NCBI RefSeq assembly: GCF_050920415.1
Contig: NZ_CP169309.1
Origin: Escherichia coli
GTDB taxonomy: Bacteria; Pseudomonadota; Gammaproteobacteria; Enterobacterales; Enterobacteriaceae
Direction: 5' to 3' (one strand)
Length of the DNA: 64,000 bases
Below are positions 54,872-57,032 of the stretch, one piece after another. The notes under the pieces were generated by a model. The model ran no database searches. It saw nothing but the letters and a program-made list of their open reading frames with translations, and was not told the origin of the DNA. Each line of letters starts with the position of its first letter. Position 1 is the stretch's first letter. The position numbers were made by a program, and so were the translations under genes.

Positions 54872-55885
54872 ATGAAGGTACTGGTTACCGGCGCCACCAG
54901 CGGCTTAGGTCGAAACGCGGTAGAGTTTTTATGCCAGAAAGGCATCAGCGTGCGTGCGACCGGTCGCAACGAGGCAATGGGTAAATTGCTGGAAAAAATG
55001 GGCGCAGAGTTTGTTCCAGCGGATCTGACCAAGCTGGTCTCATCACAAGCTAAAGTGATGCTCGCAGGCATTGATACGTTGTGGCACTGCTCCAGCTTTA
55101 CCTCTCCGTGGGGGACACAACAGGCTTTCGATCTGGCTAACGTTCGCGCCACTCGCCGTCTGGGTGAATGGGCTGTCGCCTGGGGAGTACGTAACTTTAT
55201 TCATATCTCTTCCCCCTCCCTGTACTTCGATTATCACCACCATCGCGATATTAAAGAAGATTTTCGCCCACACCGCTTCGCTAACGAGTTTGCCCGTAGC
55301 AAAGCAGCCAGCGAAGAAGTGATCAATATGCTTTCGCAGGCGAATCCACAAACGCGCTTTACTATTCTGCGCCCACAAAGTCTGTTCGGACCACACGATA
55401 AAGTCTTTATCCCCCGTCTGGCGCATATGATGCACCACTACGGCAGCATTCTGTTACCGCACGGCGGCAGTGCGCTGGTCGATATGACCTACTATGAAAA
55501 TGCCGTGCACGCCATGTGGCTGGCAAGCCAGGAAGCCTGCGATAAGCTACCTTCCGGGCGTGTGTACAACATCACCAACGGCGAGCATCGCACACTGCGC
55601 AGCATCGTGCAGAAGCTGATCGACGAGTTGAATATTGACTGTCGTATTCGTTCCGTCCCCTACCCGATGCTGGATATGATCGCCCGCAGCATGGAGCGTT
55701 TAGGCCGCAAGTCAGCAAAAGAGCCGCCCCTGACCCACTACGGCGTCTCCAAGTTGAATTTTGACTTTACGCTGGATATTACGCGTGCGCAGGAAGAGTT
55801 AGGTTATCAACCAGTCCTCACCCTGGATGAAGGTATCGAGAAAACTGCCGCCTGGCTACGCGACCACGGAAAACTGCCGCGCTAA
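54872..55885 (+). CDS. ybjS: NAD-dependent epimerase/dehydratase-family protein YbjS
   Basis: Start [20 protein letters not shown] (Rossmann GxxGxxG). Confidence 0.88.
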
Positions 55886-56712
55886 TCCTGCCCGTATTTC
55901 TCCAGCAACGCTTCGGCAATCGCCTGAGTTTCTGCATCCGCTTCGCCGTTGTATAACGTCGGGCGGAAATGCATCTGGAACGCCATAATCACGCGCCGCT
56001 GCTCGCGCGGTGTCATATCAGGTTTTACGTCATAACCATAGCGCGCCAACAGTTCCAGCAATGATGCGGTATCTACCGGTGTGTGCGGCGCGCGCCCGGC
56101 AAGGTAAAAGTTCACCCGTTGCGCATCCGGCCAGGCACCAATCCCCTGCTGCGCCAGTTGTTGCCAGGGGAATAACGGCCCCGGATCGTCTTTGCGCTGC
56201 GGCGCAATATCCGCATGCGCCACTACGTTTTCCGGCTTGATGTGATAACGGGCAATAATATCTTTCGCCAGGGGGATGAGCGCCTGTATCTGTGCCGGTT
56301 CAAACGGAGCAAAATATTTCACCCCCGACGATTTTTGCCAGCCTCGGTTTTCCAGCTCAATGCCAATAGAGGTGTCGTTAAGGCGTGTTGCCCCGCGCCA
56401 GGCGCTAATCCCCGCATGCCAGGCCAGTTCCTGTTCCGGCACCAGTTGCCAGATGCGCGGTTTACCGTTGTATCGCGGTGGCACAGCAGGGACCAGATAA
56501 TGCGAGCTGACCTGTTTATCGGTCAGTGTCGCCAGCGAGCTATCAAAATCATCTGCGGTGTAGTGGATCACCAGCACTTTAATGCGCGGATACGCCGCCT
56601 GCGCCTGGCGTCGGGTATCAAGCTGATATCCCTCTTTCTCGACAATGCCTTTTTCGCCGGCACACCCTGCCAGTAACAGAGCGGCGGCGACCAGCCAGAA
56701 GACTCTTCTCAT
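55882..56712 (-). CDS. amiD: N-acetylmuramoyl-L-alanine amidase AmiD (lipoprotein)
   Basis: 276-aa ORF; signal peptide plus lipobox LLAGCAG. Confidence 0.93.
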
Positions 56713-57032
56713 CGACGCGTTTTCACCGCCGTACCGCTGACGCTAACCATCAGCATACTGCCGTTTTGCCCGACCGTTTCGTAGTCGATATCAATACCGA
56801 CTACGGCATCGGCCCCCAACGCCCGCGCCTGATCGCCAAGTTCCTCAAAGGCAATCTCCCGCGCTTTACGCAATTCTTTTTCATAAGCCCCGGAGCGTCC
56901 GCCAACGATATCGCGGATACCGGCAAAGAAATCACGGAAAATATTGGCACCTAAAATCGCTTCGCCTGTCACCACACCGCAATATTCGACGATGGTCTGG
57001 CCTTCCAGAGTTGGGGTTGTAGAAAATTGCAT
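56709..57032 (-). CDS. ybjQ: UPF0145/YbjQ-family protein
   Basis: 107-aa [35 protein letters not shown]; 4-bp overlap with amiD. Confidence 0.9.

Follow-up and report, generated by a model that had tools for sequence, protein, structure and literature searches.

In E. coli, the distance found most commonly between co-directional genes is −4, in which neighboring genes share an ATGA tetramer (PMC6728339, PMC10666635). Of five native ATGA pairs that have been tested, four were strictly coupled in translation, the exception being bioBF (PMC6728339), and in native pairs stop-start distances of only 14–38 nt strongly reduce reinitiation (PMC10666635). Convergent genes, for their part, can overlap by 4 bp through their stop codons, and the tetramers involved are CTAA, TTAA, CTAG and TTAG (Lillo and Krakauer 2007, PMC2174442). 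E. coli K-12 contains 58 convergent overlaps per genome (PMC2174442).

Four overlaps of these two classes are found in the stretch of the E. coli chromosome analyzed here, which has a length of 64,000 nucleotides and is referred to as the window (Table 1). Gene limits were taken from the ORF listing and from direct reading of the sequence. The initial annotation had placed 4-bp overlaps at two co-directional junctions (amiD/ybjQ and macA/macB) and two convergent junctions (ybjS/amiD and ybjX/ybjD), and sequence and annotations agree on all four, the former two being ATGA stop/start contacts and the latter two stop/stop contacts. In their immediate context the junctions read cgATGAga (ybjQ/amiD), caATGAcg (macA/macB), cgCTAAtc (ybjS/amiD) and ggTTAAtc (ybjX/ybjD). 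The comparison with reference annotations that had been proposed as a check was run, and the PGAP and K-12 boundaries of the four overlaps coincide with those of the window. The PGAP annotation of NZ_CP169399.1, a sequence that is 100% identical to window positions 54700–57300 and 99.99% identical and colinear across 38807–57646, contains the same four 4-bp overlaps, as does K-12 MG1655 (NC_000913.3; b0866–b0868 and b0876–b0879). No differing start or stop codon was found in any annotation or argument for any of the four. On the basis of its Pfam match, lipobox and annotation, the amiD product is an outer-membrane lipoprotein N-acetylmuramoyl-L-alanine amidase.

Table 1. Genes, overlaps and transcript-end features, in window coordinates; Rho regions are transferred from K-12.
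Feature	Position	Strand	Details
ybjQ	56709–57032	−	107 aa; UPF0145/YbjQ_1; stop TGA 56709–56711; ORF, Pfam PF01906 E=4.5e-39, PGAP and K-12
amiD	55882–56712	−	276 aa; start ATG, stop TAG; ORF, Pfam Amidase_2 E=4e-30, lipobox LLAGC, PGAP and K-12
ybjS	54872–55885	+	337 aa; NAD-dependent epimerase/dehydratase family; stop TAA; ORF, Pfam Epimerase E=7.5e-30, PGAP and K-12
macA	41284–42399	−	stop TGA
macB	39341–41287	−	start ATG
ybjX	42550–43506	+	stop TAA
ybjD	43503–45161	−	stop TAA
ybjQ/amiD ATGA overlap	56709–56712	−	last ybjQ codon CGA gives the A of the amiD ATG
macA/macB ATGA overlap	41284–41287	−	sequence, annotation
ybjS/amiD CTAA overlap	55882–55885	both	ybjS TAA on +, amiD TAG on −
ybjX (+)/ybjD (−) TTAA overlap	43503–43506	both	sequence, annotation
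Last 11 ybjQ codons, amiD translation-initiation region	56713–56745	−	SD-like GGCGGTGA 10 nt upstream of ATG
Predicted intrinsic terminator of ybjD, inside ybjX coding sequence	43426–43480	−	hairpin 43480–43433, then U6 43431–43426
Rho-termination region centre, ybjX transcript	~44388	+	882 nt past ybjX stop, antisense to ybjD; from K-12 917246(−)
Rho-termination region centre, ybjQ-amiD transcript	~55507	−	375 nt past amiD stop, antisense to ybjS; from K-12 906118(+)
Rho-termination region centre, ybjS transcript	~56536	+	651 nt past ybjS stop, antisense to amiD; from K-12 905089(−)

All four are minimal gene overlaps of an ordinary kind, located in the conserved backbone of the E. coli chromosome, and both the class and the individual pairs were already known. 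Both co-directional pairs appear at −4 nt in a published K-12 table, in which the macA/macB row reads −4 and "complex yes" (PMC10666635, Suppl. file 3). Among the annotated pairs between window positions 11942 and 62612, 2 of 27 co-directional pairs are spaced at −4, with artQ/artM at −1, and 2 of 6 convergent pairs share 4 bp. From the 58 per K-12 genome, 0.8 convergent overlaps would be expected per 64 kb, and the two observed do not constitute a significant enrichment (Poisson P(>=2)=0.19). Every overlap is 4 nt long and consists only of stop and start codons, which sets these pairs apart from long overlapping genes and overprinting. The initial annotation regarded the arrangement as compact backbone rather than anomaly, an assessment that holds. 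As such the overlaps matter little, since the 4-nt contact is the most frequent one among bacterial genes and all four are present in the reference annotation.

The two co-directional overlaps had been taken to suggest translational coupling. This suggestion is consistent with −4 being the modal distance, with the coupling of 4 of 5 analogous pairs, and with the conserved ybjQ/amiD distance. In ybjQ-amiD and macA-macB, the TGA that ends the upstream gene and the ATG that opens the downstream one are merged in the ATGA tetramer. In the mechanism envisaged, a ribosome ending the upstream gene would already sit at the downstream start, where it could reinitiate. A Shine-Dalgarno-like (SD-like) element in the final codons of the upstream gene may aid this step, namely AGGAG for macB and the weaker GGTGA for amiD. 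The macB element is situated 7 nt upstream of the start, inside macA (−6.6 kcal/mol). The amiD element, 10 nt before the ATG, is weak and distant, with an anti-SD duplex of −6.3 kcal/mol, yet its synonymous sites are conserved. From the zero intergenic space and the conserved adjacency (74/80 loci for ybjQ-amiD), we infer that each ATGA pair is probably co-transcribed; the SMRT-Cappable-seq supplements contain no entries giving transcript-level data for ybjQ-amiD.

The ybjQ/amiD junction is strongly conserved. In all 74 Enterobacteriaceae loci that have ybjQ upstream, representing about 25 genera, the stop/start distance falls between −4 and +2 and thus stays in evolution within the short-distance range of −8 to about +10. 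The junction takes the form ATGA in 62 of the 74 loci and TGATG/TAATG in 8–10. The last ybjQ codon, the rare CGA, is 98% fixed across loci. When ybjQ is divided into 11-codon windows, synonymous entropy reaches its minimum at the final 11 codons (0.41 vs 0.67; permutation p=0.0009). Together, the distance and the synonymous constraint fit selected translational coupling by termination-reinitiation, insofar as this can be read from sequence comparison. The low synonymous variation at the end of ybjQ could also stem from another cause. Within this one locus, the two overlap classes diverge in their evolution, the stop/start contact being strictly conserved while the stop/stop contact drifts.

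Other explanations for the ATGA junctions differ in how they read these data. The overlaps could be the outcome of neutral stop/start drift that has no effect on expression, with amiD and macB initiating de novo at ribosome-binding sites of their own. The distribution of overlap lengths is in large part explained by point-mutation models (PMC2174442), and one of the five E. coli ATGA pairs tested initiated de novo (PMC6728339). Moreover, macB is preceded by a good SD, and in 83% of loci the initiation region of amiD shows greater openness than shuffled sequences, which would make de novo access possible. Nevertheless, we consider neutral drift unlikely, given that the ybjQ-amiD distance keeps to −4 to +2 in 74/74 loci while the spacing at the adjoining convergent junction ranges from −4 up to over 600, and that synonymous sites directly upstream of the amiD ATG are constrained. 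Drift would in fact be selected against, because distances of 14–38 nt strongly lower reinitiation (PMC10666635). Gene calling could also be at fault, at least one of the overlaps being an artefact of a mischosen start codon. Start codons are predictions, and in macB a TTG occurs in frame as the fourth codon. This explanation is almost certainly wrong. The convergent overlaps depend on stop codons alone, so re-annotation of starts cannot shift them. For amiD, no possible start lies further upstream than the ATG, which occupies the same position in 62/74 loci; it is also the sole start that retains the lipoprotein signal peptide, since ahead of the lipobox cysteine the frame offers no second ATG, GTG or TTG. 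Finally, the curated K-12 and PGAP annotations concur on the boundaries.

For certain junctions in phages and operons, coupling through a sequestering hairpin is a classical mechanism. Applied to amiD, this occluding mechanism, which is discussed in PMC6728339, would have the SD-like sequence and the AUG locked in a stem formed by GGCGGUGA with UCGCCGCC of amiD codons 8–11, to be opened only by a ribosome translating ybjQ. This 8-bp stem is indeed present in both the MFE and the centroid fold of the ybjQ/amiD junction in the window. However, this fold is no better than those of shuffled sequences (z=−1.0), the SD-like region is paired with downstream sequence in only 21% of 71 unique junctions, and the mean unpaired probability of positions −15 to +5 is 0.46 vs 0.39 for shuffles. 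The stem of this strain is thus unconserved over the 71 junctions, where the average initiation region is less paired than its shuffled counterparts. We rejected the occluding hairpin for amiD as very improbable.

YbjQ belongs to an uncharacterized family and is putatively metal-binding and pentameric. It is possible that the fixed ybjQ-amiD overlap marks a functional partnership, in which YbjQ (UPF0145) and the zinc amidase AmiD would be produced in a fixed ratio. We offer this proposal tentatively and judge it unlikely; literature tying ybjQ functionally to amiD was not found, and YbjQ appeared only in structural-genomics mentions of its fold. If true, the partnership would be the first functional handle on YbjQ, for example in cell-wall recycling or in metal supply for AmiD. 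In any case, the conserved putative coupling hints weakly at what the YbjQ family does.

In the convergent pairs, the absence of a shared intergenic terminator, as had been claimed, is trivially true given the overlapping stops, and the observation can be extended to termination inside the opposing gene. Because there is no intergenic DNA, each convergent transcript must end inside its partner, and published K-12 Rho data together with a hairpin prediction point to where this may occur. With the stop codons interlocked (CTAA in ybjS/amiD, TTAA in ybjX/ybjD), the amiD, ybjS and ybjX transcripts would run several hundred nucleotides antisense into the partner before being stopped by Rho. The corresponding K-12 regions have Rho scores of 15.9 (p=6.9e-53) for 917246(−), 4.27 (p=4.9e-6) for 906118(+) and 3.90 (p=2.6e-10) for 905089(−) (Adams et al. 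2021, Suppl. file 2). The data cover K-12 grown in LB only, and antisense transcripts that initiate within genes may account for part of the signal. Their coordinates were moved to the window by gene-length-exact homology, with a resolution of hundreds of nucleotides. By transfer from these data, we infer that all three transcripts end by Rho in this strain as well. The read-through of ybjS spans about 78% of amiD.

At ybjS/amiD, intrinsic terminators are unsupported by any of three approaches: a consensus scan returned 4 candidates vs 3.2 expected in shuffles, folding of the two strands gave no significant hairpin (z=−0.4 and −1.2), and a local search for a hairpin followed by U residues yielded weak candidates only. 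At ybjX/ybjD, a hairpin predicted for the ybjD transcript has a dG of −26.9 kcal/mol, and its 107-nt context is more stable than expected (z=−3.8; 0/200 shuffles as stable). The predicted ybjD terminator is identical in K-12, and 0 of 23 variable sites among four divergent E. coli fall within it; two divergent E. coli retain the ybjX/ybjD overlap in a TTAG variant. The ybjD transcript most likely stops at this predicted hairpin and U-tract, which the final 80 nt of ybjX encode. No mapped 3′ end at this site appears in the Term-seq list of Adams 2021 or in the TERMITe supplements. A bidirectional intrinsic terminator, with an A-tract on one side of a GC-rich hairpin and a U-tract on the other, was found at neither overlapping junction, and an Rfam scan of the whole window placed no known RNA family at the junctions. 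At the non-overlapping cspD/macB pair, which served as a control from the same window, the intergenic DNA contains a canonical bidirectional terminator, for which a 3′ end has been mapped.

The convergent overlaps could themselves be selected for regulation, antisense transcription or RNA polymerase collision rendering the expression of amiD/ybjS and of ybjX/ybjD mutually exclusive. K-12 transcripts reach about 375–880 nt antisense into the partner before Rho acts, which in the case of ybjS covers the 78% of amiD given above. We nonetheless regard a selected regulatory role as quite improbable. The −4 overlap of amiD/ybjS is kept in only 24/80 related loci, among which all four possible tetramers are seen; antisense read-through past convergent genes is widespread in Adams 2021, with many "antisense" entries; and read counts are low. 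Because the overlap is kept so rarely, and because this junction often shows a gap, an inserted gene or the absence of ybjS in the 80 related loci, its geometry is without visible selection, and the convergent overlap looks contingent when the loci are compared. The two convergent pairs may serve as a worked example of how genes that have no intergenic DNA can terminate, either by Rho deep in the partner gene or at a terminator that the partner's coding sequence contains.

A joint explanation, in which the overlaps are ordinary, the ATGA pairs are translationally coupled and the convergent transcripts terminate inside the opposing gene, is in our view very probable, and it places the locus close to described systems. 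The pairs studied by Huber et al. (2019, 2023), hyfHI, astDB, ydbH/ynbE as well as menDH, have the same tetramer, the same strand arrangement and an SD-like motif in the upstream gene. Unlike in those tested pairs, coupling of ybjQ/amiD and macA/macB is proposed by analogy, and the SD-like motif of amiD is weak. The macAB genes encode subunits of one complex, which also holds for 30% of the E. coli pairs spaced at short distance. In contrast, ybjQ/amiD encode no known complex, YbjQ being cytoplasmic and uncharacterized and AmiD an outer-membrane lipoprotein. Intergenic bidirectional terminators such as that of cspD/macB serve the same need as the convergent arrangement, the ending of two converging transcripts, but intergenic DNA is absent from the overlapping pairs, and the ybjD hairpin carries a U-tract on one strand only. 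Among convergent overlaps, the CTAA and TTAA junctions both fall within the tetramer set of the published 4-bp stop/stop class, from which nothing substantive differs here, except that published data additionally allow the other three transcripts to be matched to Rho regions. One partner, in this case ybjD, appears to have its rho-independent terminator located within the coding sequence of the other gene, a situation shared by 19 of the 58 convergent overlaps of E. coli (PMC2174442).

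The seven genes and four 4-bp overlaps lie where the initial annotation had placed them, the ORF list and the raw sequence agreeing throughout. Read directly, the co-directional junctions are cgATGAga (ybjQ/amiD) and caATGAcg (macA/macB), the four bases ATGA being common to stop TGA and start ATG in each. The convergent junctions are cgCTAAtc for ybjS/amiD (ybjS TAA, amiD TAG) and ggTTAAtc for ybjX/ybjD, with a TAA stop on either strand. Reference annotations give the same four overlaps, both in the nearest relative, E. coli MFDS1022581 (NZ_CP169399.1, PGAP), and in K-12 MG1655 (b0866-b0868, b0876-b0879), and Pfam hits confirm YbjQ (PF01906), AmiD (Amidase_2) and YbjS (Epimerase). 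Because the convergent overlaps rest on stop codons alone, they are independent of start-codon prediction, and no possible amiD start lies further upstream than the ATG, nor would any other preserve the lipoprotein signal peptide. Taken with the matching annotations, these points confirm the overlaps, with the start and stop codons unchanged.

Positions of the seven genes and of features at or near transcript ends (Rho regions from K-12 data of Adams et al. 2021, PMC7815308)
Feature	Window position	Strand	Basis or detail
ybjQ	56709-57032	-	ORF list and raw sequence
amiD	55882-56712	-	ORF list and raw sequence
ybjS	54872-55885	+	ORF list and raw sequence
macB	39341-41287	-	ORF list and raw sequence
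macA	41284-42399	-	ORF list and raw sequence
ybjX	42550-43506	+	ORF list and raw sequence
ybjD	43503-45161	-	ORF list and raw sequence
Rho region, amiD transcript	~55507		K-12 906118(+); antisense to ybjS; score 4.3; 375 nt past stop
Rho region, ybjS transcript	~56536		K-12 905089(-); antisense to amiD; score 3.9; 651 nt past stop
Rho region, ybjX transcript	~44388		K-12 917246(-); antisense to ybjD; score 15.9; 882 nt past stop
cspD/macB intergenic region with bidirectional intrinsic terminator	39269-39340	both	12-bp GC-rich stem; A-tract and U-tract flanks; z ~ -3 each

The window is colinear with NZ_CP169399.1 and K-12 across all four junctions. Positions 54700-57300 are 100% identical to NZ_CP169399.1, and 5,421 of the 5,426 complete E. 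coli genomes carry this stretch. The sole differences from NZ_CP169399.1 are a missing IS2 and a missing satellite prophage, both away from the junctions. The latter, inserted between clpS and yljB in NZ_CP169399.1, is a 10.3-kb P4-like element with integrase, primase, capsid and head-decoration genes; at the corresponding site in the window (38807-38827), the attachment core is probably a 21-bp segment that the two alignment blocks share. The backbone at 36634-57092 has only 95.9% identity to K-12, and the ybjS-ybjQ stretch finds a match of at least 99% in only 2/5,426 complete genomes; the E. coli lineage to which the window belongs is therefore sparsely sampled. Elsewhere in the window, Rfam matches above the gathering score mark the sRNA STnc130 between dmsA and serS (20644-20778, +) and the REP-type nucleoid-associated RNA naRNA4 (63313-63393, -). 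A single 28-nt match to the CRISPR-DR4 repeat (50 bits, 35840-35867, -), adjoined by a tRNA-Ser (35650-35734), is probably a remnant repeat; it lies between infA and clpA, the chromosomal site of E. coli type I-F CRISPR arrays.

The number of overlaps in the window is not above chance. Within its annotated part (11942-62612), a distance of -4 occurs in 2/27 co-directional and 2/6 convergent pairs. In E. coli, -4 is the commonest co-directional distance, and 707 of 2,987 pairs fall within -8 to +6 (PMC10666635). From the 58 convergent overlaps per genome (PMC2174442), 0.8 are expected per 64 kb, with P(>=2) = 0.19. Other compact junctions are convergent ycaN/ycaM (0-nt gap, 12850/12851), co-directional cydD/cydC (0-nt gap, 32432/32433), dmsC/dmsB (1-nt gap, 17479/17481) and artQ/artM (1-nt overlap, -1, 62612).

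At both co-directional junctions, a ribosome ending the upstream gene would reinitiate at the overlapping downstream start. A precedent for such termination-reinitiation exists in the work of Huber et al., who found strict coupling in 4/5 native E. coli ATGA pairs (PMC6728339), and inserting 14-38 nt causes a steep drop in reinitiation (PMC10666635). The macB start is preceded at 7 nt by AGGAG, within macA; the only counterpart for amiD is GGTGA, which lies within ybjQ, 10 nt ahead of the ATG. Among 80 amiD loci from about 25 Enterobacteriaceae genera (AmiD identity 73-97%), ybjQ is directly upstream in 74, and in all 74 the stop/start distance lies between -4 and +2: ATGA in 62 (three with an additional possible upstream start), TGATG or TAATG (-1) in 8-10, and GTGA (-4), alternatively ATG at +2, in two. 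In six loci from Klebsiella pneumoniae, Raoultella and some Enterobacter (L041, L042, L043, L051, L053 and L061), other genes lie upstream or the amiD ORF is N-terminally extended, so the pairing is common but not universal in the family.

In 98% of unique sequences, ybjQ has as its final codon CGA, a rare Arg codon held in place because the amiD ATG takes its A from the third position; the penultimate Arg codon varies freely between CGC and CGT. The GCG-GTG-AAA codons that spell the GGTGA motif are 97%, 84% and 92% fixed, and the adjacent Gly and Thr codons are variable. Synonymous entropy reaches its minimum in the last of 89 11-codon ybjQ windows (0.41 versus 0.67 on average across the gene; permutation p = 0.0009), which fits the presence of a translation-initiation region within the upstream gene. 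Good comparative evidence thus points to selection on the overlap and on the bases immediately preceding it. The two genes could also be coupled by an occluding hairpin that the upstream ribosome opens, and in this strain GGCGGUGA is predicted to pair with amiD codons 8-11, enclosing the AUG. This model was rejected because shuffled sequences fold equally well, pairing of this type recurs in only 21% of 71 unique junctions, and across these the region -15 to +5 is on average more open than shuffled sequence. Termination-reinitiation is probably the better account of ybjQ/amiD.

It is unlikely that the putative, strictly conserved coupling of ybjQ and amiD reflects a functional partnership between the uncharacterised YbjQ (UPF0145) and the zinc amidase AmiD. 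In K-12, ampD/ampE (b0110/b0111, outside the window) is also listed at -4 (PMC10666635). As ampD encodes the cytoplasmic anhydro-MurNAc-L-Ala amidase, both E. coli anhydro-muramyl amidase genes belong to ATGA-overlapping pairs, ampD as the upstream and amiD as the downstream member. A low-GC island (57092-59665; ~31% versus ~55% GC in the flanks) separates ybjQ from ybjP and contains an intact 594-aa ORF (57242-59026, -) that weakly matches pentapeptide repeats. K-12 lacks the island, its ybjP-ybjQ spacer measuring 125 bp, and in NZ_CP169399.1 the island is disrupted by IS2. With the island beginning just 60 bp ahead of the ybjQ start codon, the most promoter-like sequence for ybjQ-amiD (TTGACA-16-TAAACT, 57141-57114, -) lies within foreign DNA.

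Unlike the ybjQ/amiD stop/start overlap, the amiD/ybjS stop/stop overlap is evolutionarily labile across the 80 loci. The distance is -4 in 24 (Escherichia, most Citrobacter, Salmonella and some Klebsiella), 0 to 25 nt in 16, 26 to 160 nt in 10 and >160 nt in 12; ybjS was not found in the amiD flank in 18, two of which have flanks too short to judge. A 4-bp convergent overlap is necessarily CTAA, TTAA, CTAG or TTAG (PMC2174442), and all four are represented in the -4 class. Within E. coli, the ybjX/ybjD overlap persists where its tetramer has changed to TTAG instead of TTAA, which fits neutral stop-codon drift (PMC2174442) rather than a selected regulatory device; antisense read-through may nonetheless have a role.

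That the convergent pairs share no intergenic terminator, as first noted, is trivially true. At amiD/ybjS, terminator consensus scans did not exceed shuffles, and the folds of the two strands are no more stable than expected by chance (z = -0.4, -1.2). Rho entries from MG1655 DirectRNA-seq with and without bicyclomycin (Adams et al. 2021, Supplementary file 2, PMC7815308) cover three of the four transcripts, with none for ybjD, suggesting that amiD, ybjS and ybjX transcripts would be terminated by Rho deep within the opposing gene. The ybjD transcript probably ends at a predicted intrinsic terminator embedded in the ybjX coding sequence, a hairpin 3' of the ybjD stop (43480-43433, -26.9 kcal/mol) followed by UUUUUU (43431-43426). 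Its 107-nt context has z = -3.8 (equally stable shuffles, 0/200), and the hairpin is identical in K-12, versus 95.9% identity for the region overall, with 0/23 variable sites among four divergent E. coli. A mapped 3' end was not found there in the K-12 Term-seq list of Adams et al. 2021 or the TERMITe supplements. Lillo and Krakauer described embedded rho-independent terminators in 19/58 E. coli convergent overlaps (PMC2174442).

By contrast, cspD and macB, convergent genes separated by 72 bp, have a textbook bidirectional terminator between them, AAAAUGCCAGCC-CGAUC-GGCUGGCAUUUUU, which coincides with a K-12 Term-seq 3' end at 922302(-) (PMC7815308). The four overlaps are real and ordinary, in keeping with the initial view of them as compact arrangements and not anomalies. 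Both overlap classes are textbook prokaryotic features, and termination-reinitiation, Rho termination of untranslated read-through and embedded intrinsic terminators are all established mechanisms. The specific pairs are already known from reference annotation and a published K-12 table, which lists both co-directional pairs at -4, ybjQ/amiD as "no complex" and macA/macB as "complex" (PMC10666635).
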